From: an uncultured Bacteroidales bacterium
GTDB taxonomy: Bacteria > Bacteroidota > Bacteroidia > Bacteroidales > UBA932
Direction of reading: 5' to 3'
Assembly: GCA_944323785.1 (NCBI GenBank)
Contig: CALUTU010000005.1
Span: 39,319 to 103,318, forward strand
Length of the DNA: 64,000 nt
The notes beneath the pieces were generated by a model, which saw only the letters and a list, made by a program, of their open reading frames with translations, was not told where the DNA came from and did no database searches. The position numbers and the translations under genes were made by a program. This document shows, in pieces, positions 21,230 through 51,855 of the stretch. Each line of letters starts with the position of its first letter. The first letter of the stretch is position 1.

Positions 21230-21258
21230 AGGCATCCAACAAACTCAAACGACAATCT

Positions 21259-21291
21259 TAAGGGGCTGCGTCACAACAGCCCCTTTCTTTT
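21259..21291 (+). terminator. Rho-independent terminator (fimbrillin-like gene)
   Basis: AAGGGGCTG-N8-CAGCCCCTT followed by TCTTTT. Confidence 0.75.
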
Positions 21292-21363
21292 AACCCATCT
21301 TTCCCCATCTTTCCGCGAGCCATTTTGCAGGCCGTATCTGTTCCATTAGTTCATTCGCTGTCA

Positions 21364-21548
21364 CTTTTACAATGTCCAGCACACCATTTAAATATATTTC
21401 CCTAATTATCAAGCATATACATTTAGTAACTTGCTGGACTTCGTACATTTCGCCACAAAACCACCATATTACACCGAGTCCAGCAGACATCTTTTTTCTG
21501 GGCGCTTGATTATCGGCCACTTCTCTAATCTACTCCTGCTGGACTCCT
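21364..21548. repeat. R3 double-hairpin module, diverged solitary copy
   Basis: Aligns by eye with 36458-36645 and 36911-37098 at roughly two-thirds identity, with indels. Keeps all four GTCCAGCA / TGCTGGAC arms and the leading CTTTTACAATGTCCA. Confidence 0.8.
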
Positions 21549-21601
21549 CTAGACGGGCAAACTGAACACGAACGTTATGGACGGCTACTTCGCAGATGCC
21601 C

Positions 21602-21646
21602 ATAAAAAAAGCACAGCCCATTCGGGAAAACCGGAATGGACTGTGC
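21602..21646 (-). terminator. Rho-independent terminator (end of lipoprotein operon 1)
   Basis: The minus strand reads GCACAGTCCATTC-loop-GAATGGGCTGTGC (one G-U pair) followed by TTTTTTTATG. Lies 32 nt after the stop at 21678. Confidence 0.8.
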
Positions 21647-21677
21647 TGATTAATTCAGACTGGTCAGTAGCCTACCG

Positions 21678-32116: not shown

Positions 32117-33961
32117 ATGAGCGAAGAATTAAGAAATTACGACAGCAGTGCGATAGAGACCCTGGACTGGTACACCCACATCCGCACCAGACCGGGCATG
32201 TACATAGGCAGTACCGGAGACGGCTCGATGCCTGATGACGGCCTGTATGTACTGGTCAAGGAGGTGATAGACAATTCCATAGACGAATACGCGTCAGGTT
32301 TCGGAAAAGAGATAATCATAACAGTGGAGGGCCGTCAGGTAACTGTCCGCGACTTCGGCAGAGGTGTCCCCCTGGAAAAGGTGGTGGACGTATCCAGCAA
32401 GCTGATGACGGGCGGCAAGTTCGACAGCGGAGTATTCAAGAAGAGTGTAGGCCTAAACGGCATAGGTATCAAGGCCGTCAATGCCACATCTGTTTATTTT
32501 CAGATCACATCCTACCGTAACGGGAAATTCCGCAGCGCGACTTATTCAAAGGGTATACAGAAAAGCGACGAGAGCGGCGACAGCACCGAGAAGAACGGTA
32601 CGCTCGTAAGTTTCATCGCCGATGACGAGGTCTTCCACAACTACTCCTACAACATGGAGTTTATCGAGACCATGGTGCGCAACTACGCCTACCTCAACAC
32701 CGGACTCACCCTCAGGCTCAACGGTACCGTTTATCACTCGGCAAACGGCCTGCTCGACCTGGTCAACGAGACCATGGCGGCAGAACCGCTGTACCCTCCC
32801 ATCCATCTTAAAGGAGAGGACATCGAGTGCGTCATAACCCACGGAGAGAGCAACGGGGAGAATATCGCATCCTTTGTCAACGGCCAGAACACGACTCAGG
32901 GCGGTACACATCTCGCCGCTTTCCGCGAGGCGGTAGCCAAAACCGTCAAGGAGCATTTCAAGAAAGACTTCGAGCCGGCCGATGTCCGCCAGTCGATAGT
33001 CGGAGCCATCAGCATCCGCGTCAATGAGCCCGGCTTCGGCAACCAGACCAAGACCAAGCTCAGCTCGAAGGACGTGCGTCCAGGTCTGTCAGTCCGCTCA
33101 TTCATAGGCGATTTCGTGGAGGAGGAGCTGGACAACTACCTCCACAAGCATCCCGAGACCGCCTCCGTCATGCTGAAGAAAATACAGGCTTCGGAAAAGG
33201 AGCGGAAAGCCATATCCGGCCTGCAGAAGAACCTGAAGGAGAAGGTCAAGAAAGCCAGTCTCTGCAACAAGAAGCTAAGGGACTGCCGCGTACACTATAC
33301 CGACTCGCGCAACGAGCTCGCCGAGCTTTCGTCCATCTTTATCACCGAGGGAGACTCCGCCAGCGGCTCGATCACCAAGATCCGCGACGTGAATACCCAG
33401 GCCGTGTTCAGCCTCAGGGGCAAGCCGCTGAACTGCGTGCAGAAAAGCGAGAAGGAGGTCCGCGAGAACGAGGAACTGCTCCTGCTCAAGGCCGCCCTCA
33501 ACGTGGACGAGGATATGGACAACCTCCGCTACAACAAGATAATCATCGCGACCGATGCCGATGTGGACGGAATGCATATCCGCCTGCTGATGGTCAGCTT
33601 CTTCCTCAAGTACTACCCCGAACTGGTGCGGCAGGGACATGTCCATATCCTCCAGACACCCCTGTTCAGGGTCTGCAACAAGAAGCGGAGCATATACTGC
33701 TACAGTGAGGAGGAAAAGGAGGCCGCCGTCAAGGAGATAGGTTCCGGGGCCGAGATCACCCGCTTCAAAGGTCTCGGAGAGATCTCGCCCGATGAGTTCA
33801 AGGACTTCATCGGTGAGAATATGAGACTGGACCCGGTCCGTCTGGACTCGGATGACAGCATCCCTACTCTGCTTCAGTTCTATATGGGGAAAAATACCAT
33901 TGACAGACAGGCGTTCATCCGTCAGAATCTGAGGTCAGAGCTAATTCTGGAAATCGTATAA
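32117..33961 (+). CDS. parE: Type IIA topoisomerase subunit B, probably topoisomerase IV ParE
   Basis: Motifs PGMYIG, EGDSASGS and LRGKPLN, plus a TOPRIM domain, in a 614-aa product. The 195-codon N-terminal extension of the raw ORF overlaps the divergent operon and promoter, so it was trimmed. ParE versus GyrB is judged only from the short length. Confidence 0.8.
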   Translation: MSEELRNYDSSAIETLDWYTHIRTRPGMYIGSTGDGSMPDDGLYVLVKEVIDNSIDEYASGFGKEIIITVEGRQVTVRDFGRGVPLEKVVDVSSKLMTGGKFDSGVFKKSVGLNGIGIKAVNATSVYFQITSYRNGKFRSATYSKGIQKSDESGDSTEKNGTLVSFIADDEVFHNYSYNMEFIETMVRNYAYLNTGLTLRLNGTVYHSANGLLDLVNETMAAEPLYPPIHLKGEDIECVITHGESNGENIASFVNGQNTTQGGTHLAAFREAVAKTVKEHFKKDFEPADVRQSIVGAISIRVNEPGFGNQTKTKLSSKDVRPGLSVRSFIGDFVEEELDNYLHKHPETASVMLKKIQASEKERKAISGLQKNLKEKVKKASLCNKKLRDCRVHYTDSRNELAELSSIFITEGDSASGSITKIRDVNTQAVFSLRGKPLNCVQKSEKEVRENEELLLLKAALNVDEDMDNLRYNKIIIATDADVDGMHIRLLMVSFFLKYYPELVRQGHVHILQTPLFRVCNKKRSIYCYSEEEKEAAVKEIGSGAEITRFKGLGEISPDEFKDFIGENMRLDPVRLDSDDSIPTLLQFYMGKNTIDRQAFIRQNLRSELILEIV

Positions 33962-33973
33962 CACTCCCCGCTT

Positions 33974-34552
33974 ATGAGAATCATCAGTCCCAATACCGCC
34001 AAGCGCATACTCCATCTTATGGGATGGAAAGGAATGGACGAGGCCATCCCCGCTCCGAAATGCATCATTCTGGGAGCCCCTCACACATCCATCTGGGACT
34101 TCGTAATATCCTGGCTTTATTACCGTTCAGTCGGCGGCAACGCCAAGGTCATGATCAAGAAAGGCTTTTTCAAATGGCCCCTCGGTCCCATACTGCGGCA
34201 TCTGGGCGGTATCCCGGTAGACCGCAGCAGCGGAGGCGGAGCGCATCTGGTCCGCCAGATGATCGCCGAGTTTGAGAAAGACGAGTACTTCCAGCTGGCC
34301 ATTGCCCCTGAAGGGACCCGCAGGCCGGTAAAGAGATGGAAGGGAGGATTCCACACCATCGCGAAAGCCACAGGAGTGCCGGTGTTTCTCGGTTACTTTG
34401 ACTGGGGGACTAAAACTGTAGGAGCCAAGGAAGAGTTCCACATCACCGATAATGTAGAGGCTGACCTAAAGCGCATACGGCAATGGTACAAGGATAAAGG
34501 CGTAGTAGGAAAATATCCTGAGAAATTCACTACCGGGGACGACCTGGATTAA
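33974..34552 (+). CDS. 1-acyl-sn-glycerol-3-phosphate acyltransferase family
   Basis: 192-aa ORF with the HxxxxD motif (APHTSIWDF) and PEGTR motif (APEGTRRP). Confidence 0.85.
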   Translation: MRIISPNTAKRILHLMGWKGMDEAIPAPKCIILGAPHTSIWDFVISWLYYRSVGGNAKVMIKKGFFKWPLGPILRHLGGIPVDRSSGGGAHLVRQMIAEFEKDEYFQLAIAPEGTRRPVKRWKGGFHTIAKATGVPVFLGYFDWGTKTVGAKEEFHITDNVEADLKRIRQWYKDKGVVGKYPEKFTTGDDLD

Positions 34553-34564
34553 AAGGAAAGCATT

Positions 34565-36256
34565 ATGGACAACACACATCAGCGGTCACTTCGGGCACTG
34601 CTCGAGTTCGCCTTTACACGATATGCCGACAAGCCGTTCCTGCATTTCATCGACGGGCCCGGCTACAGCTACGGAGAGTTCCACGCCAAGGTCTATGAGA
34701 CCGCCGGACTGCTGGCCCGCTACGGTATGGGCAGAGGCGACCTCGTGGGGCTGCTCTCGCAGAATATGCCCAACTGGGGCGTAGCGTATTTCGCCACAGC
34801 CGCCTTCGGCATGATTACAGTGCCGATGCTTCCGGATTTTTCCGAGAGCGAGATCAAGCACATACTCAAGCACTCGGAGGCCAGAGCCCTGTTCGTATCC
34901 AGGAAACTGCTGCCGAAAGTCCTGCCGAAAGCCATTGACCGACTGGAGCTGATTATCTGCCTCGACGATTTTTCCATCATCAAGGGAGCTCCGTGCAGTG
35001 AGCCGGCAGAGCTGCCCTCCGAAGCGGACATACAGCCGGACGATCTGGCCGCCATCATCTACACATCAGGCACTACCGGCAGTTCCAAGGGCGTGATGCT
35101 CAGCCACCGCAACCTGTGCGCCAACCTCTGGTCCACCGAGGATGTCCGCCCGAGCTTCGACTGGGACGTGTGGCTGTCCCTGCTGCCCCTGTCCCACACC
35201 CTAGAGTGCAGCATGTGTCTCCTCCTTCCGATGCAGGCCGGAGCCAGCGTCAACTACATCGAAAAGGCACCGACACCGACCATTCTTATGAATGCCCTGG
35301 CACGGGTAAGGCCCACGACCATCCTCTCCGTGCCCCTTATTATAGAAAAGGTATACCGCAGCGCGGTGCTGCCGAAACTCACCGCATCACCTCTGCTCCG
35401 GTTCTTGCACCGCATCCCTCCTTTCAGGAAAATGATGCACCGCAAGGCCGGCCGGATGCTGATGGAAAAATTCGGAGGCCGCATCCGTTTCTTCGGCATC
35501 GGCGGGGCAAGGCTTGACCCCGAGGTGGAACGTTTCCTGCTTGAGGCCCGTTTCCCCTACGCCATAGGCTACGGACTCACCGAGACCTCGCCGCTCATCG
35601 CAGCAGCCACCCCGGACATGGTCCGGCTCGGATCCACCGGCCCGGTAGTCAAAGGCGTGGAGCTGCGTCTGCTCAACAAAGACCCCAGGACAGGCGTAGG
35701 CGAGATAGCCGTCAAGGGAGACAACGTCACACGTGGCTATTTCAAGAACCCCGAGGCCACTTCCGCAGCCTTCACCGAGGACGGCTGGTTCCTGACAAAG
35801 GATCTCGGCAAGCTGGACAAGGACGGCTGGCTCTACATCAAAGGCCGCTCCTCGACTACCATTATCGGCCCGAGCGGAGAGAACATCTATCCCGAAGAAG
35901 TGGAGAGCGTCATCAACAGCCACGATATGGTGTCCGAGTCCCTGGTCACCAACCGCAAGGGCAGGCTTACAGCCTTGGTTCATTTCGATTCCGATAAGCT
36001 CAAGGCCTTTCTCGAGTCCACTGACGAGCTGAAACGCACTGCTCAGGAGAAGCTGGAGAACCTCAAGAAAGAGATTCTGGACTACGTCAACCAGAAAGTC
36101 AGCAAATTCTCCCGCATCAGCGAGATAGACCCTCAGGAGGAGGAGTTCGAGAAGACTGCCACCCACAAGATCAAGCGCTACCTCTACGACGGCTCCAAAT
36201 CCAAAGACTCCAAATCCAAAGACCCCAAATCCAGCAAGCCCTCACACAGCAGGTGA
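34565..36256 (+). CDS. AMP-dependent long-chain acyl-CoA synthetase/ligase
   Basis: 563-aa ORF with the AMP-binding signature IIYTSGTTGSSKGV and GYGLTET. The K/S-rich C-terminal tail and stop codon lie inside the repeat-element tail. Confidence 0.9.
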   Translation: MDNTHQRSLRALLEFAFTRYADKPFLHFIDGPGYSYGEFHAKVYETAGLLARYGMGRGDLVGLLSQNMPNWGVAYFATAAFGMITVPMLPDFSESEIKHILKHSEARALFVSRKLLPKVLPKAIDRLELIICLDDFSIIKGAPCSEPAELPSEADIQPDDLAAIIYTSGTTGSSKGVMLSHRNLCANLWSTEDVRPSFDWDVWLSLLPLSHTLECSMCLLLPMQAGASVNYIEKAPTPTILMNALARVRPTTILSVPLIIEKVYRSAVLPKLTASPLLRFLHRIPPFRKMMHRKAGRMLMEKFGGRIRFFGIGGARLDPEVERFLLEARFPYAIGYGLTETSPLIAAATPDMVRLGSTGPVVKGVELRLLNKDPRTGVGEIAVKGDNVTRGYFKNPEATSAAFTEDGWFLTKDLGKLDKDGWLYIKGRSSTTIIGPSGENIYPEEVESVINSHDMVSESLVTNRKGRLTALVHFDSDKLKAFLESTDELKRTAQEKLENLKKEILDYVNQKVSKFSRISEIDPQEEEFEKTATHKIKRYLYDGSKSKDSKSKDPKSSKPSHSR

Positions 36257-36296
36257 ACCGAAACTCCGCCCAACCGGTATACCAGCACTCACTTTT

Positions 36297-36404
36297 ATGA
36301 AAATTCCAGCAGTCGAAAAGACCAGGCCCTCCCACCGCTTCGCGGCGGGCCCCTCCCTCTAGAGCCGAGGGCGGCTAGTCTTTTCTCGTTGCTGGAATTT
36401 CATA
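36297..36404. repeat. R2 long imperfect palindrome (~108 nt), copy 1
   Basis: ATGAAAATTCCAGCAG...GAAAAGACCAGGCCCTC...GAGGGCGGCTAGTCTTTTC...TGCTGGAATTTCAT. The arms pair over about 35 bp with small bulges. Confidence 0.9.
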
Positions 36405-36457
36405 AGAACACCATACGGAGGAAAGTGTAGTTTCCCCAAAGGCTGGCTTAATAAGAA

Positions 36458-36645
36458 CTTTTACAATGTCCAACACACCGCTCAAATGTATTGTGCTGAT
36501 TATTAAACGCATACATTTTGGCGATTTGCTGGACTGCCCGCTTTTTGCCATAAAACAACCATTTCACCCCAGGTCCAGCAGATGCTCTTTTTCAGAGTGC
36601 CTGTATACTAGGCACTTTCCCAAGCAGGCCCTGCTGGACCTCCCC
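36458..36645. repeat. R3 double-hairpin module, copy 1
   Basis: GTCCAACA...TGCTGGAC and AGGTCCAGCAG...CTGCTGGACCT stems. Nested perfect hairpin AGTGCCT-N7-AGGCACT at 36596-36616. Confidence 0.9.
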
Positions 36646-36661
36646 TGAAGTCTCATGCCAT

Positions 36662-36706
36662 GGGGGAAAGTGAACCGTTTTCGCGGAAAAACCCGGCACT
36701 TTCCCC
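36662..36706. repeat. R1 45-nt hairpin, solitary copy
   Basis: GGGGGAAAGTG-AACCGTTTTCGCGGAAAAACCCGG-CACTTTCCCC. Confidence 0.9.
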
Positions 36707-36749
36707 GCACTCCATTCACCCCCTTTAAGAACCTGACAGCATAGACTCT

Positions 36750-36857
36750 ATGAAAATTCCAGCAGTCGAAAAGACCAGGCCCTCCCACCGCTTCGCGGCG
36801 GGCCCCTCCCTCTAGAGCCGAGGGCGGCTAGTCTTTTCTCGTTGCCGGAATTTCATA
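36750..36857. repeat. R2 long imperfect palindrome, copy 2
   Basis: Same as copy 1 with one arm substitution (TGCCGGAATTTCAT). Confidence 0.9.
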
Positions 36858-36910
36858 AGAACACCATACGGAGGAAAGTGTAGTTTCCCCAAAGGCTGGC
36901 TTAATAAGAA

Positions 36911-37098
36911 CTTTTACAATGTCCAACACACCGCTCAAATGTATTGTGCTGATTATTAAACGCATACATTTTGGCGATTTGCTGGACTGCCCGCTTTTTG
37001 CCATAAAACCGCCATTTCACCCCATGTCCAGCAGATGCTCTTTTTCAGAGTGCCTGTATACTAGGCACTTTCCCAAGTAGGCCCTGCTGGACCTCCCC
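36911..37098. repeat. R3 double-hairpin module, copy 2
   Basis: About 98 percent identical to copy 1 by eye. Confidence 0.9.
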
Positions 37099-37114
37099 TG
37101 AAGTCTCATGCCGC

Positions 37115-37477
37115 GGGGGAAAGTGAACCGTTTTCGCCGAAAAACCCGGCACTTTCCCTGGAGGTGGAAATGCCAAGTGCGGCGAGAGAGGCCTGTGGAG
37201 CCAGTGCCCCGGCCGGCCACGGGGGAAAGTGAACCGTTTTCGCCGAAAAACCCGGCACTTTCCCCGGAGGTGGAAATGCCAAGTGCGGCCAGAGAGGCCT
37301 GTAGAGCCGGTACCCCGGCCGGCCATGGGGGAAAGTGAACCGTTTTCGCCGAAAAACCCGGCACTTTCCCCGGGGGTGGAAATGGCAGGTGCCGCCAGAG
37401 AGGCATGTGGAGCCGGTACCCCTGCGAGCCACGGGGGAAAGTGAACCGTTTTCGCGGAAATTCCCGGCACTTTCCCC
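37115..37477 (+). repeat. 106-bp tandem repeat array (3 full periods, 4 R1 hairpins)
   Basis: R1 hairpins start at 37115, 37221, 37327 and 37433, an exact 106-bp period. The ~61-nt inter-hairpin segments are also about 85-90 percent identical to each other. Confidence 0.95.
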
Positions 37478-37537
37478 GAGGGTCTAGGACAAGGGGAGAA
37501 AAAACGCAAAGGTGGGACGAAATGTTGAATGAAATGA

Positions 37538-37833
37538 AAAGGTAAAAGGGCATGTGACTGGAGGGCTGACGAGGATGATGTGGGACGGAAAGGTAAAAGG
37601 GTATGTGACTGGGGGCTGACGAGGATGATGTGGGACGGAATGGCACAAGGGCGTGTGACTGGAGGGGCTGACGAGGATGATGTGGGACGGAAAGGTAAAA
37701 GGGTATGTGACTGGGGGGCTGACGAGGATGATGTGGGACGGAAAGGTAAAAGGGCGTGTGACTGGAGGGGTTGACGAGGATGATGTGGGACGGAAAGGCA
37801 CAAGGGCGTGTGACTGGAGGGGCTGACGGGACA
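37538..37833 (+). repeat. ~52-bp G-rich, C-poor tandem repeat array (~5.7 units)
   Basis: Unit is AAAGGTAAAAGGGYRTGTGACTGGRGGGCTGACGAGGATGATGTGGGACGG. Units start near 37538, 37589, 37640, 37692, 37744 and 37796. Confidence 0.9.
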
Positions 37834-37849
37834 AGAATGAGACGGGATG

Positions 37850-37899
37850 GGAGGAAAGAGAAGGAGCGCATTCGCCGTCTGTCCGGTCGAATGCGCTCC
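37850..37899 (-). terminator. Rho-independent terminator (end of lipoprotein operon 2)
   Basis: Perfect 12-bp stem GGAGCGCATTCG-N13-CGAATGCGCTCC. On the minus strand it is followed by TTCTCTTTCC. Lies 33 nt after the stop at 37932. Confidence 0.75.
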
Positions 37900-37931
37900 C
37901 TATCAGATTAAACTGGTACTACCCTTATGCT

Positions 37932-39227
37932 CTACTTGGTAACAGTTGACGACATGCTTGTCGGAGCCGCCTTTACCACAGTCATTACTTTACTGTCCTG
38001 CGCAGCGTAACTTGTAGAGGTCTTAGTGAACGTTAAAGTTCCGGCAGGAATATAAGTAGGGTAATCACCGTAATATACACCCACACCGTTATCAAATGAG
38101 AAAATATCTGCAGCCACAACGGTATACTGTACATTGGAACTGCTCATGAGCTCGCGAGAAATGCTCGTCTTGGTATCAGGGTCTATGAGAAATGCGTACT
38201 CAGTACCGCTAAAGATAGTGACAACATCATCTTCCTCATTCCAGCATATAGGTGCACATAGCATATCATTGCCATTTAGGTCCTGAGCTACGGCCATATC
38301 ACCGGTCACGATGCCAAGACACGGCTTTCCATCCTCGCTCTCGATTATGGTAGCCCAAAGAGAATACTCTGACAGAGGAGACAATCCGCTTATCCACACA
38401 TAGTTCTCGTTGGTGGACGGCTGTATGGTAACTGGAATTTCGTCGGCATAGCCAGTTTTGTCAAATTCGAACACTATCTGATCGTTCGAATTGTAGTCAA
38501 CGACAACCCTCGCCGTACATCCTACAGTGTAGGTTCCCAACCACGATCTGAGTTCCTCTACCGGCTCCACGACTTCGTGCTGAACAGTGAACGAGCACTC
38601 TCCAGGAAGTGATTCGCGATATTCGGCTGAGCCTTCTTCAGGCTGGGCGATTACACTCACAGTATGAGTGGTGGCAGTAAGGTCGGAAGTCTGGTATGTG
38701 ACAGACGTCTCCGTGGTAGTCTCCCATTCGCCTGAATCGAGGGAGTAAATGTAAGATGCGGCATGCTCAATGCTGGACCAGCTGACAACAACCCCTCCTT
38801 TACCGTCAGGATTAGCGGTCACTTCCGGAGTCTCCAGTCTTTGAGGCTCTACCTGAGCGGTCACTGTGAAAGTGTATGAGCCGGGTTGCGAGGCAGTGTA
38901 CTGATCAGCGGCATCCAGGGCCGGATTGGCAATGACATAGACCGTATGCTCGCCTTCAGCCAGATCAGAGGTGCTGACGGTTACCGATGTCTGGTCTGTG
39001 GTTCTCGCAGCGTTGCTGTCAATGTTCCAGCTGTAAGTCGCCGCATTGGGGATTTCTGTCCAAGATACCGTAACATTGTCTCCATTGACGGTGGCCGACA
39101 CCTCCGGAGTAGCAAGAGCCACTGCCTCGGCAGGGCCATTCTGTTCCTGGCATGAGAGCGCTACGGCAGCAGCCGCTGACACAGCAAAGAGACGCAGATA
39201 AAAATAGTTCATTTTAAAATATTGCAA
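37932..39227 (-). CDS. Surface lipoprotein with two FN3-like domains + C-terminal domain (operon 2, gene 4)
   Basis: 431-aa ORF with lipobox VALSC followed by QEQ. Two internal repeats are present (TPEVSATVNGDNVTVSWTEIPNAATYSW... and TPEVTANPDGKGGVVVSWSSIEHAASYIY...). Confidence 0.75.
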   Translation of the reverse strand: MQYFKMNYFYLRLFAVSAAAAVALSCQEQNGPAEAVALATPEVSATVNGDNVTVSWTEIPNAATYSWNIDSNAARTTDQTSVTVSTSDLAEGEHTVYVIANPALDAADQYTASQPGSYTFTVTAQVEPQRLETPEVTANPDGKGGVVVSWSSIEHAASYIYSLDSGEWETTTETSVTYQTSDLTATTHTVSVIAQPEEGSAEYRESLPGECSFTVQHEVVEPVEELRSWLGTYTVGCTARVVVDYNSNDQIVFEFDKTGYADEIPVTIQPSTNENYVWISGLSPLSEYSLWATIIESEDGKPCLGIVTGDMAVAQDLNGNDMLCAPICWNEEDDVVTIFSGTEYAFLIDPDTKTSISRELMSSSNVQYTVVAADIFSFDNGVGVYYGDYPTYIPAGTLTFTKTSTSYAAQDSKVMTVVKAAPTSMSSTVTK

Positions 39228-39252: not shown

Positions 39253-40659
39253 TTAGTCCTCGTATGCGTAATTGACAAGGGTGTTGATCGGAATGTTGAC
39301 AGCATTGTCCACAACCGCACCGAAATCCCCGTAGAGGACATTCGCAACGCTACCGGTGTAAGTTCCATTGTAGGTTGTGTAGACTACTACGTGCAGATTG
39401 TCGGTATTCTCAACTGAAGACGGAACGCGTACTTTCAGCTGGGTCACGTAAGTGCCGTTGGCCTCCAGCGAGACATTGTCTCCCATAAGGTTGTCGGTCA
39501 TCTCTATACGAATCACGTTATTGTGGACATAATCCTCGCTGCCTCCCAGCTGGTAGTACACCAGGCCGTCCTCAAGCAGGAAGGCGTGCAGCGCATACAG
39601 ACCCGCCTCCTTCGAGGCTATGCTGATGTCCGCATAGACAGTGTCATTCTCCAATCTGGTCACTCCGCCTATAACGGTATTGGAAGGCAACTCACGGACA
39701 GCCTCCTCGGCCAATCCGCTAAACTCATCAGTCATAATGGTCGGATTGGTGTTGTTGGCTATTTCTCCGTAATAGTTGACAAATCCCCTCGGATAGCTGG
39801 CTACTCCAAACATGGCAATGAAGGCATTGCAGTTAGAGTACGCGAGGCTTGTATTCCCGTTGAGGGCGAAAGTGTGCATATTCATGGGAATGATATGATC
39901 GGCCACATTTCTCTCAGCTTCCTCAAGAGCCTGGTTCATAGTAGGACAGTTCACACACCCCGTACTTGTGAAACGGATAGCAAGGGAGCGTCTCACGAAA
40001 GTGCGGCTGTAGTCAGCGACAAGCGAGCCTATCTGCTCCACGGTAATGGTCGCGGTAGTCACGCCGTCCTCGCCCGTAAGGGTGATGTGGCCTTCTCTGA
40101 TCTCGCCGTCATTGCCCTGTATGGACAGATTGACTACGGATGTCATGTACTTGGAGTAAGTATGGTTGTCCTCCAGAAGCGTGGAGTCATACTGGATACC
40201 GGTAACCGTCAGCCAGTCCACGTCCGGTACGGCCTCGTACTTCACATTTCCCTCCACGGGGAAGGCAAAAGTCTGCTCCGTAGATGTTACGGTATAGCTG
40301 TCAGGGGATATGCTAAAGCCGGGGGTACCGTCCTGGAACACGTAGTACAGGGTCTCGGTGCCGTTGACTGTCACGGCGAAATTTCCGGCTCTTTCCTTTA
40401 GTCCGGAATTTGTTTCCAGAATGGAGATAGTCAGATTGGCCGTCCCCGCGCTGCCTCTCATCGGTGTCACTACAAACCATGACGCCCGGTTCTCCAGAGT
40501 CCAGTCGGAGTCAAACTCGAGCGAGGTCTGGACTGTTGTCACCTCGTTCGGAACTGAAATGGAATTGCCTATGATGGCATCAGGCCCGTCCTCTCCCGGT
40601 TTGCAGGAGAGGATGAAAGCCATACCAAGAACTATAAATAATATTTTTGAGAATTTCAT
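39253..40659 (-). CDS. Lipoprotein: BACON-like domains + Omp28-related thioredoxin-fold domain with CxxC (operon 2, gene 3)
   Basis: 468-aa ORF with lipobox FILSC. BACON-like segment ASWFVVTPMRGSAGTANLTISI. RFTSTGCVNCP resembles the FTxxxCxxCP motif of Omp28-related proteins, from memory. Confidence 0.7.
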   Translation of the reverse strand: MKFSKILFIVLGMAFILSCKPGEDGPDAIIGNSISVPNEVTTVQTSLEFDSDWTLENRASWFVVTPMRGSAGTANLTISILETNSGLKERAGNFAVTVNGTETLYYVFQDGTPGFSISPDSYTVTSTEQTFAFPVEGNVKYEAVPDVDWLTVTGIQYDSTLLEDNHTYSKYMTSVVNLSIQGNDGEIREGHITLTGEDGVTTATITVEQIGSLVADYSRTFVRRSLAIRFTSTGCVNCPTMNQALEEAERNVADHIIPMNMHTFALNGNTSLAYSNCNAFIAMFGVASYPRGFVNYYGEIANNTNPTIMTDEFSGLAEEAVRELPSNTVIGGVTRLENDTVYADISIASKEAGLYALHAFLLEDGLVYYQLGGSEDYVHNNVIRIEMTDNLMGDNVSLEANGTYVTQLKVRVPSSVENTDNLHVVVYTTYNGTYTGSVANVLYGDFGAVVDNAVNIPINTLVNYAYED

Positions 40660-51442: not shown

Positions 51443-51508
51443 CCCCCTCCACCCTCCTCACATCCCCTACCTCCCCCCACAGAAAGACTCACAGTCTCCA
51501 CCCCCGGT

Positions 51509-51553
51509 GGGGAAAGTGCCGGGAATTTCCGCGAAAACGGTGCACTTTCCCCC
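51509..51553. repeat. R1 45-nt hairpin, inverted copy
   Basis: GGGGAAAGTGCCGGGAATTTCCGCGAAAACGGTGCACTTTCCCCC. This is the reverse complement of the 37433 copy with 1 mismatch. Confidence 0.9.
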
Positions 51554-51564
51554 GTGTGGTGAAA

Positions 51565-51670
51565 ATGAAAATCCGGCAACGAGAAAAGACTAGCCGCCCT
51601 CGGCTCTAGAGGGAGGGGCCCGCCGCAAAGCGGTGGGAGGGCCTGGTCTTTTCGACTGCTGGATTTTCAT
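51565..51670. repeat. R2 long imperfect palindrome, inverted copy 3
   Basis: Reverse complement of the 36297-36404 family with a few substitutions. It is followed (51671-51722) by the inverted 'tail' homologous to 36247-36296. Confidence 0.9.
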
Positions 51671-51855
51671 TAAAATGGGCGCAGGTGTACCGGTGTGGCT
51701 GGATTTCGGTTCACCTGCGGTGTGCCTGTGGCGTGTGTTAATTCCAGACAGGGATAGGGCGTGTCCAGGGATCAGGAGGTTACGCTGCCAGTAGGCATAG
51801 TGTATGTACACGGCAGCAGATAAGAGGGCAGATACGCCTGAGCCGGAAGACCTGA

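Follow-up and report, generated by a model that had tools for sequence, protein, structure and literature searches.

The intergenic spacer at positions 36257-37931 of the window (the whole 64,000-nt stretch of contig CALUTU010000005.1, from an uncultured Bacteroidales bacterium, that was analysed here) is best explained as a cluster of extragenic palindromes resembling the bacterial interspersed mosaic elements (BIMEs). With a probability of roughly 0.78, the cluster belongs to a REPtron/TIRtron-type system of Candidatus (Ca.) Coprenecus (placed by NCBI in the Bacteroidales, Rikenellaceae incertae sedis) and its relatives, in which repetitive extragenic palindromes (REPs) are paired with a protein like the REP-associated tyrosine transposases (RAYTs). 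The first-pass annotation of this DNA had described a gene-free spacer made of repeats and had named a structured-RNA locus, a protein-binding array and a REP/BIME-like mosaic family as candidate identities. The spacer does lack any credible gene, and the third identity agrees with what was found: its modules recur, shuffled, in the intergenic regions of at least five related species represented by metagenome-assembled genomes (MAGs), and its hairpin R1 flanks a RAYT-like gene.

The spacer was read directly and with two repeat finders, one of which was Tandem Repeats Finder, and was cut into modules that were mapped by BLAST. The modules follow the order pre-A-L1-B-C-D / L2-A-L1-B-C-D / E-D-E-D-E-D / G / Fx5.7 / T (Table 1). 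Tandem Repeats Finder returned a 453-bp unit (36296-37158, 1.9 copies, 98% matches), a 106-bp unit (37110-37478, 3.5 copies, 92% matches) and a 52-bp unit (37538-37828, 5.7 copies, 90% matches), which are the direct repeat, the array with R1 hairpins and the G-rich array that had already been recorded. All the repeats listed at that time are present, and the segment 36257-36295 (pre) proved to belong to the repeat family as well. The D hairpins would serve as junctions between non-coding cassettes, namely E in the 106-bp array and L2-A-L1-B-C in the 453-bp unit, and the cluster may be read as D-cassette-D-cassette, with a 52-bp minisatellite and the putative terminator hairpin of the neighbouring operon at one end. 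Both pre and L1 carry degenerate remnants of D, so every block is bounded by D or by a former D.

D, which corresponds to R1, is a 44-nt imperfect hairpin (GGGGAAAGTGAACC...CACTTTCCCC). Its 10-bp stem (GGGGAAAGTG/CACTTTCCCC) is combined with a variable tip and with an asymmetric bulge region, GTGAACC, that is conserved. A search with the R1 pattern gave five matches in the spacer, one at 51509-51552 (-) and none in 100 shuffles. Folding as single-stranded DNA (ssDNA) was compared with that of shuffled sequences, giving z-scores of -2.9 for D, -4.8 and -6.6 for the two strands of A (the former R2) and -4.9 for C (the former R3), in line with the earlier description of these elements as hairpins or palindromes; the 55-nt spacer E, the 52-bp unit F and module B (z -0.7) fold no better than shuffles. 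In a logo of 79 D copies, internal copies have GCC[AG][CT]G on their 5' side, and copies at cluster edges have unrelated bases there. The tip is invariant in its 5' half and varies without compensation in its 3' half. Changes in the inner stem of D and in the inner hairpin of C are likewise uncompensated, and covariation supports the 10-bp outer stem of D only. The motif GGAAAGTG recurs in D, L1 and C.

The cognate enzyme would be a roughly 315-aa HUH/Y1 protein related to the REP-associated tyrosine transposases. Its gene is found in the complete long-read MAG OZ006987.1, where two contiguous stretches (L029 and L010; sequences from other assemblies carry L numbers) are syntenic with window positions 51443-51855 and contain, in order, pre-A-(D-E)n-D, a Y1-transposase-like open reading frame (ORF), an IS1634-family transposase and (D-E)3-D. 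The IS1634-family insertion sequence (IS; L010 1296-2963, with a 504-aa DDE transposase and terminal repeats CCTGTAACTTCCG) interrupts the RAYT-like gene and cuts off roughly its last 32 codons in OZ006987.1; intact versions of 312-317 aa are common in metagenomes. The protein possesses an invariant H-x-H motif (H51 and H53) and a nearly invariant tyrosine (Y108) in SY[VI]xRNP. It matches the NCBIfam model NF047646 REP_Tyr_transpos with an E-value of 2.8e-10, as do 19 of 20 homologues at E<=1e-3, and all 20 match Pfam PF01797 Y1_Tnp at E<=1. These homologues match no other family model at E<=1e-3 (NCBIfam) or E<=1 (Pfam). An AlphaFold2 model of the protein (pLDDT 80, pTM 0.84) was compared with known structures using Foldseek, and the best match in the PDB (E 2.7e-6, TM-score 0.71 normalised to the target) is 4ER8_A, the REP-associated tyrosine transposase of E. 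coli in complex with a REP hairpin; IS608, ISDra2 and IS200 TnpA come next. A PDB sequence search with the protein profile gave no meaningful match, leaving the fold comparison as the informative one. The C-terminal region of roughly 170 aa is conserved and has no match in Pfam at E<=1, in the PDB profile search or in the fold comparison. The full-length family comprises about 139 representatives of 50% clusters at E<=1e-30. Its members are named 'hypothetical protein' or 'transposase' only in all sources, and the repeats are unannotated. The single-copy gene occupies chromosomal neighbourhoods that are conserved. At two loci (L132 5938-5954 and L037 4972-5014), the last codons of the gene (...SSRGGK from GCCGCGGGGGAAAG) run into the first downstream D, and the 3' end of the gene therefore overlaps its cognate hairpin.

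The association of hairpin and protein extends across lineages. Cognate palindromes flank the gene at L010/L029, L132, L031, L037, L051, L055, L048, L041-45 and L060-62. Homologues that are 68-73% identical and occupy other neighbourhoods, among them one between GH92 and iPGM genes, are flanked by GGGAAAGTGAACC...CACTTTCCC hairpins. Homologues that are 46-51% identical are flanked by 44-nt hairpins that keep the GTGA(A)CC feature, and the hairpin arms have changed on both sides to GCAAAGGTG/CACCTTTGC, GAAGGTG/CACCTTC or GGCAGGTG/CACCTGCC. When 17 hairpins from four lineages were aligned, pairing in the 10-bp stem came to 98.2%, with double compensatory changes in five of the ten pairs; the covariation score was reached by none of 500 shuffles, and slid controls collapse. 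A metagenome scan for the protein family, reaching down to about 27% identity, yielded 75 loci, of which 64 were usable. At 55 of these 64 loci, a perfect hairpin whose stem is 9 bp or longer lies within 350 nt of the gene ends, compared with 6/64 inside the gene and 6/51 in far flanks.

Periodic arrays stand beside homologues at L031 5006-5584, L041 2041-2829, L043 137-1143, L048 1404-1801, L060-L062 and L063 3918-4233, and their period is clade-specific: 105-107 bp in every lineage with an identity of about 38% or more, and 84 bp in a clade with about 33%. The sequence of the array spacer mostly differs between lineages, with a short motif, GGCGAGAGAGGYCT, shared with one 46% lineage only. 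An explanation of the periods by the helical repeat was rejected, given that multiples of 10.5 bp fit periods of 105, 84, 63, 52 and 42 and do not fit 46, 48, 35 and 38. The favoured model does not account for the fixed 105-107-bp period.

The repeat family is dispersed across genomes at low copy number. A scan for the exact D pattern in one genome for each of 185,579 species returned 30 stretches, almost all in four or five related uncultured Bacteroidales MAG species. BLAST mapping places about 25-30 D copies per genome at 6-11 loci, all of them intergenic; these occupy convergent, tandem and divergent gaps, and many consist of a single D. Around D, the other modules are shuffled into combinations that include (D-E)n arrays, pre-A-D and D-L2-A-L1-B-C-D, the last of which is dispersed in L002, L006, L007 and L027. 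Arrays of 106 bp are present at 14 further loci, and in L010/L029 and L132 they flank the RAYT-like gene. Relative to neighbouring genes, the modules are found in either orientation. Within the window, blastn and nhmmer place family members in only three gaps, at 21.4, 36-38 and 51.5 kb, and nhmmer detected no more diverged copies beyond these. The copy at 21.4 kb includes a B segment (21363-21467) that is 75% identical by blastn, with nhmmer E-values of 9.5e-22 for B and 1.2e-6 for C, and it has hairpin feet (GTCCAGCA/TGCTGGAC) as in the spacer. A separate terminator-like hairpin lies near 21265-21290 in the same gap (21230-21677). A phage origin was also considered and rejected, as neither D nor the core of A has a match in IMG/VR.

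Alleles at single sites differ by whole D-bounded blocks. At one locus, the sequence between the first and last D is (E-D)4 in L003 and L2-A-L1-B-C in L007 and L027, with flanks that are identical right up to the hairpin feet, and L002 and L011 exhibit a permuted module order. The 51.5-kb site of the window lies in a convergent gap (51443-51855) between a gene for a SpoIIE-like protein of 387 aa and a Metallophos gene of 281 aa, and the gap measures 410-1250 bp among strains. Five alleles were found there: solo D; (D-E)5; arrays with the 453-bp cassette; arrays with the gene; and the form of the window. Contigs that encode an identical SpoIIE-like protein have flanks 97.5-99.2% identical to the window. 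Three of these (L139, L141 and L142) contain A-D only, as in the window; L137 contains A-(D-E)5-D, in which a spurious 202-aa 'gene' has been called; and the conspecific L138 and L140 contain A-(D-E)2-D-[L2-A-L1-B-C-D]-(E-D)2, in which L2-A-L1-B-C-D is an insertion polymorphism between D hairpins. L132, with flanks 97.0% and 98.2% identical to the window, contains A-D-E-D-E-D, an intact 317-aa RAYT-like gene and D-(E-D)6, giving three upstream and seven downstream D hairpins. The L2-A-L1-B-C-D block measures 453 bp, and the 453-bp duplication of the spacer is therefore another D-bounded cassette gained or lost at D sites. By comparison with these alleles, the 51.5-kb site of the window looks like a collapsed transposase locus (REPtron), the scar of a deletion between flanking D arrays.

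The locus at 36-38 kb is itself conserved and polymorphic. The first-pass annotation had raised the possibilities that the arrays were assembly artefacts or were confined to this strain. L131, which was assembled independently and from another sample, has 99.87% identity over window positions 33104-37649 and contains both 453-bp units and the D-E (106-bp) array, and the orthologous arrays are also present in the long-read OZ006987.1 (L028); an assembly artefact was rejected on these grounds. Orthologous loci are found in three other species, namely OZ006987.1 (L028), Ca. Coprenecus pullicola (L005) and BRZ_BB bin35 (L001 and L023). The module order is the same in all three, with one A-L1-B-C block compared to two in the window, and the second 453-bp cassette is missing from L028, L005 and L001. 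The number of D hairpins varies from four to at least six and that of F units from 1.7 to 7.7 (7.7 in L005 and about 1.7 in L028 and L023), and thus the counts of D, F and the 453-bp unit all differ between the four species. F, G and T are confined to orthologues of this locus. Modules A-C are 97-100% identical to those of C. pullicola at the orthologous locus. The left-flank alignment, which is mostly the ligase gene and includes the pre-to-D modules, is about 87% identical to C. pullicola and the right flank 95%; the latter value suggests a recombination mosaic, and selection on A-C is therefore not interpretable from this comparison.

Coordinates of the modules and of the other family members in the window are given in Table 1. 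The spacer lies between an acyl-CoA ligase gene with an AMP-binding domain in Pfam (34565-36256, +) and a gene with no Pfam match (37932-39227, -), which adjoins an Omp28/BACON protein gene (39253-40659, -). The 3' end of the ligase gene holds a 15-bp tandem repeat of 2.7 copies (36193-36233) that encodes a low-complexity C-terminal tail of the SKSKD type. The stop codon of the ligase sits inside the pre module, which always stands before A(+) at the left edge of a cluster, has an 87.8% match to window positions 51710-51543 and is also found in L001, L005, L014, L028 and L029. T, which had been taken for a canonical terminator, is terminator-like only: a 12-bp stem (GGAGCGCATTCG/CGAATGCGCTCC), the perfect core of an inverted repeat with 17-nt arms, encloses a 13-nt loop and is followed by TTCTCTTTCC, a tail that is only moderately T-rich on the minus strand. 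T is 94-99% conserved in orthologues and was not called by a consensus terminator scan.

Table 1. Modules of the 36-38 kb spacer and other members of the repeat family in the window
Feature	Position	Strand	Description
pre	36257-36295	+	39 nt after the ligase stop; degenerate D-like remnant, begins GTGAACCG, the left-arm motif of D
A, copy 1	36296-36405	+	110-nt near-palindrome
L1, copy 1	36406-36456	+	linker with collapsed D-like mini-hairpin GGAGGAAAGTGTAGTTTCCCC
B, copy 1	36457-36564	+	AT-rich; weak hairpin potential, GTCCAACA with TGCTGGAC; 60-aa non-conserved pseudo-ORF
C, copy 1	36565-36645	+	nested hairpin closed by GGTCCAGCAG/CTGCTGGACC; 17 distinct copies
D hairpin 1	36657-36707	+	REP-like 44-nt imperfect palindrome at 36663-36706, with GCCRYG 5' of it
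Second 453-bp cassette, L2-A-L1-B-C-D	36708-37160	+	from module mapping
L2 of second cassette	36708-36748		
A of second cassette	36749-36858		
L1 of second cassette	36859-36909		
B of second cassette	36910-37017		
C of second cassette	37018-37098		
D of second cassette	37110-37160		
106-bp array	37110-37478	+	head-to-tail; unit is D hairpin plus 55-nt spacer E
D hairpins of the array	37116-37159, 37222-37265, 37328-37371, 37434-37477		
Linker G	37479-37537	+	locus-specific; in orthologous L005, L023 and L028 only, 98-100% identity
Minisatellite F	37538-37828	+	locus-specific, 52-bp, G-rich, 5.7 units, no predicted structure
T	37858-37904	-	terminator-like hairpin directly downstream of minus-strand gene 37932-39227
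B-C, stand-alone copy	21363-21545	+	in convergent gap 21230-21677; no D hairpin
51.5-kb family locus	51509-51710	-	pre 51710-51671, A 51670-51565, single D 51552-51509

The coding potential of the spacer is spurious. Two minus-strand ORFs within it (37017-37871, 284 aa, and 37045-37803, 252 aa) have no Pfam match. As neither 106 nor 52 bp is divisible by three, the reading frame changes from one unit to the next and no repeat protein can be encoded. The first of these ORFs and L137 4427-5035 are examples of the spurious 200-280-aa 'proteins' that gene callers and ORF finders predict in the D-E and F arrays, on their C-rich strand. Module B has 17 copies of 80-97% identity, and the 60-aa ORF of B-C was rejected as a small protein because three of the 17 copies contain in-frame stops and the changes are mostly non-synonymous.

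Palindrome A exhibits features of its own. It consists of 16-nt AT-rich terminal inverted repeats (ATGAAAATYCRGCA/TGCYGGAWTTTCAT) that enclose a 77-nt GC-rich core holding an A-tract and a T-tract. The core is almost invariant in 17 distinct copies from five species, compared with 77-97% for B and C in the same composites, and covariation was detected in one pair of 35, the core varying too little for the measure to be assessed. At orthologous loci, the core is inverted between identical flanks (L019 188-296 and L020 640-748 versus L022 7446-7554). It is also found in both orientations in the L2-A-L1 context; the orientations differ between species, and A is in the (+) orientation in all six conspecific strains examined. 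It might be a small switch that inverts, a functional element under constraint, or the outcome of a flip mediated by the hairpin.

In the favoured model, the RAYT-like enzyme would bind the folded hairpin in single-stranded DNA at the replication fork, cut at the hairpin foot and rejoin the strands. D-bounded segments could in this way be excised, inserted beside another D or duplicated, and homologous recombination and replication slippage among D copies would add expansion, contraction and deletion. These steps are inferred from TnpA_REP and IS200/IS605 enzymes (PMC3333891, PMC8266576, PMC6006769), with the steps of excision and insertion at hairpin feet taken over from IS200/IS605 elements. 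With the gene missing from its home site, this strain probably carries the 36-38 kb cluster as an inactive relic, which now probably changes only by recombination and slippage. An effect on the host is plausible and would be secondary: the cluster might insulate the convergent operons from each other, bring about termination between them or protect the 3' ends of mRNAs, and the A-tract, GC-rich hairpin and T-tract of A might form the 3' ends of transcripts.

Several observations count against assignment to a REPtron-type system. In both family models the score of the protein falls short of the curated cut-off (40.3 bits versus 80 for NCBIfam and 21.6 versus 23 for Pfam), and all the homologues that match these models stay under the cut-offs too. 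No homologue of the RAYT-like gene was found in the 64-kb window by tblastn and the home site is empty, and activity is not part of the claim. The GTAG or CGTC tag expected at the foot of the palindrome is absent from the logo of 79 copies; that GCC[AG][CT]G may be the counterpart of the GTAG guide or cleavage motif is speculation. All five D copies of the spacer and all array copies are oriented head-to-tail and do not alternate as in E. coli BIMEs, and the number of D copies is low relative to classical REPs, which are present in hundreds. The gain and loss of cassettes is explicable by homologous recombination alone, without an enzyme. Modules A, B and C were not found beside the transposase-like gene in other genera and possibly had an independent origin, and the near-invariance of the A core suggests a sequence-level constraint that the model leaves unexplained.

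The folding of D, A and C far beyond shuffles and the covariation of the D stem between lineages could also be expected of a structured non-coding RNA locus, either a small-RNA array or a long structured 3' untranslated region of the acyl-CoA ligase mRNA, and the consensus scan placed no terminator between the ligase stop and the repeats. This identity, which was among those first proposed, is nevertheless very unlikely. No Rfam family reached its gathering score anywhere in the window, and at E<=5 the spacer gave only a noise match to mir-1298 (E 2.5); the scan, which uses a sigma-70-type model rather than Bacteroidota promoters, returned no promoters, and terminator-like sites were at chance level. 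The modules stand in both orientations and in all gap types, the A core is inverted between orthologous loci, spacers E and F are unstructured, and the hairpin is tied to an HUH family that acts on ssDNA. A phased, non-mobile protein-binding or chromosome-structuring array is itself quite unlikely as the sole explanation. D would then be a dyad site repeated at about ten helical turns, and its ligand would be either a nucleoid protein or the transposase-like protein's C-terminal domain, domesticated as a DNA-binding factor. Such a role would suit the 105-107-bp period, which is fixed in lineages at least 38% identical while the spacer sequence changes, the recurrence of GGAAAGTG in D, L1 and C and the conservation of the roughly 170-aa C-terminal domain, and E. 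coli BIMEs are bound by IHF and gyrase (PMC3333891). It accords poorly with the free variation of array copy number between strains and with the many single-D loci, and the covariation of the stem speaks for a hairpin that folds and not for a dyad site in duplex DNA. The binding array is compatible with the REPtron-type reading and may coexist with it; the hairpin most likely provides the site that the transposase-like protein reads, and the protein-binding array of the first-pass annotation is to that extent subsumed.

Modules A, B and C may instead be miniature inverted-repeat transposable elements (MITEs) of a DDE transposon, separate from the hairpin system and gathered in the same permissive gaps. 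The 16-nt terminal inverted repeats of A, the stand-alone B-C copy at 21363-21545 and the lack of these modules beside the transposase-like gene in other genera are all in keeping with such an origin, which is unlikely given that no consistent target-site duplication is visible at the ends of A, that no autonomous element with A ends was found and that the IS1634 element of L010 has different ends. Moreover, D or a remnant of it (pre or L1) always delimits A, B and C, which move as D-bounded blocks. It is hardly credible that the spacer is an artefact, a degenerate CRISPR array or a decayed coding repeat gene, for which the regular repeat spacing, the open 284- and 252-aa minus-strand ORFs and the breaks of relatives' contigs inside the arrays (L001 and L023) might be cited. 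The 'spacers' of the array are about 92% identical to each other and recur at other loci and in other species, the ORFs of the window, nine of which were scanned against Pfam, included no cas genes that were noticed, and the differences in copy number between species would shift any reading frame.

REP/BIME elements and domesticated RAYTs are well studied in Proteobacteria; from Bacteroidota there is hardly any description of them beyond a mention of 'atypical secondary structures'. The pairing of hairpin and enzyme is the first clear one of this type in this gut lineage; the system is new in variant rather than categorically new, and standard annotation misses it. The locus provides a testable hairpin-enzyme pair in an abundant gut lineage, and its natural alleles look like snapshots of the process: a gene with arrays, arrays alone, an inserted cassette and a solo hairpin. 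In practical terms, the arrays break short-read MAG assemblies, as seen from the contigs L001, L023 and L131, which end inside arrays, and they also produce spurious ORFs and offer hypervariable markers for strain typing.

A broader interpretation can be put forward tentatively, in which the system represents an undescribed RAYT-like clade of gut and rumen Bacteroidales, with proteins of ~300-320 aa, period-fixed arrays of 44-52-nt hairpins, and hairpins at which cassettes are exchanged. The proteins would combine an HUH/Y1 domain with a C-terminal domain without detectable homologue, and the arrays would have periods of 105-107 bp (about ten helical turns) or 84 bp. The hairpins would be exchange points, following an ssDNA 'cassette array' logic like that of integron attC sites and run by an HUH enzyme, and the A (R2) core might be functional alone, for instance as a small RNA, a small switch that inverts or a terminator working in both directions. 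The likeness to integron attC arrays is one of analogy only, in that folded single-strand palindromes bound exchangeable head-to-tail cassettes; here the cassettes are non-coding and 55-400 nt in length, an HUH nuclease takes the place of the IntI tyrosine recombinase, and there is no attI or promoter. IS200/IS605 elements such as IS608 and ISDra2 share the catalytic fold, and their subterminal hairpins are read as folded ssDNA. They are multi-copy elements with left and right ends, whereas the RAYT-like gene is single-copy in conserved neighbourhoods and its hairpins proliferate without it.

Among the described tyrosine transposases of this fold, TnpA_Y1 subclass 2.6 (RAYT group 5 of Bacteroidetes; PMC6006769) is alike in host phylum and in 'atypical structures'. 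Its proteins average 179 aa and possess the motifs NH[LIV]H, WQ and YIH[QN]NP, whereas the protein described here is about 315 aa long and has [TN]H[VLI]H, no WQ motif and SY[VI]xRNP. The TIRtrons and their TIRYT proteins (Di Nocera 2013, PMC3733652), which correspond roughly to subclass 2.1 of Quentin 2018 (PMC6006769), resemble the present system in having longer RAYT-like proteins with extra C-terminal domains and moderately abundant, partly self-complementary repeats in dimers or clusters. TIRYT repeats often start with GGGGWSAS, from which the start of the D stem (GGGGAAAG) is one mismatch away. Subclass 2.1 is reported to lack REP-like structures near the gene, unlike the present family, and its C-terminal domains are DnaA_C- or HTH-like, unlike the C-terminal region here, in which no such domain is detectable. 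Compared by description, the RAYT-like protein fits neither subclass, and no named subclass is assigned to it.

The closest comparison is with the REP/BIME elements and RAYT (TnpA_REP) of the 'REPtron' of E. coli, Pseudomonas and Stenotrophomonas (Ton-Hoang 2012, PMC3333891; Corneloup 2021, PMC8266576; structure 4ER8). The two systems differ in the hairpin, which is 44 nt here compared with 20-40 nt for REPs and carries GCCRYG without a GTAG tag; in abundance, with about 25-30 copies per genome rather than hundreds; in arrangement, which is head-to-tail at a fixed 105-107-bp period rather than alternating; and in the protein of ~315 aa, whose roughly 170-aa C-terminal domain is additional and whose scores lie below the family cut-offs. 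The differences thus concern the curated score thresholds, the GTAG/CGTC tag and the alternating BIME orientation, together with the absence of the gene from the window. Common to both are short, bulged, imperfect extragenic palindromes dispersed in mosaics with linker motifs (here E, L1 and L2), a single low-copy HUH/Y1 gene in conserved neighbourhoods that is flanked by those palindromes, the fold and catalytic motifs, with 4ER8 as the best structural match, and the co-evolution of palindrome and protein.

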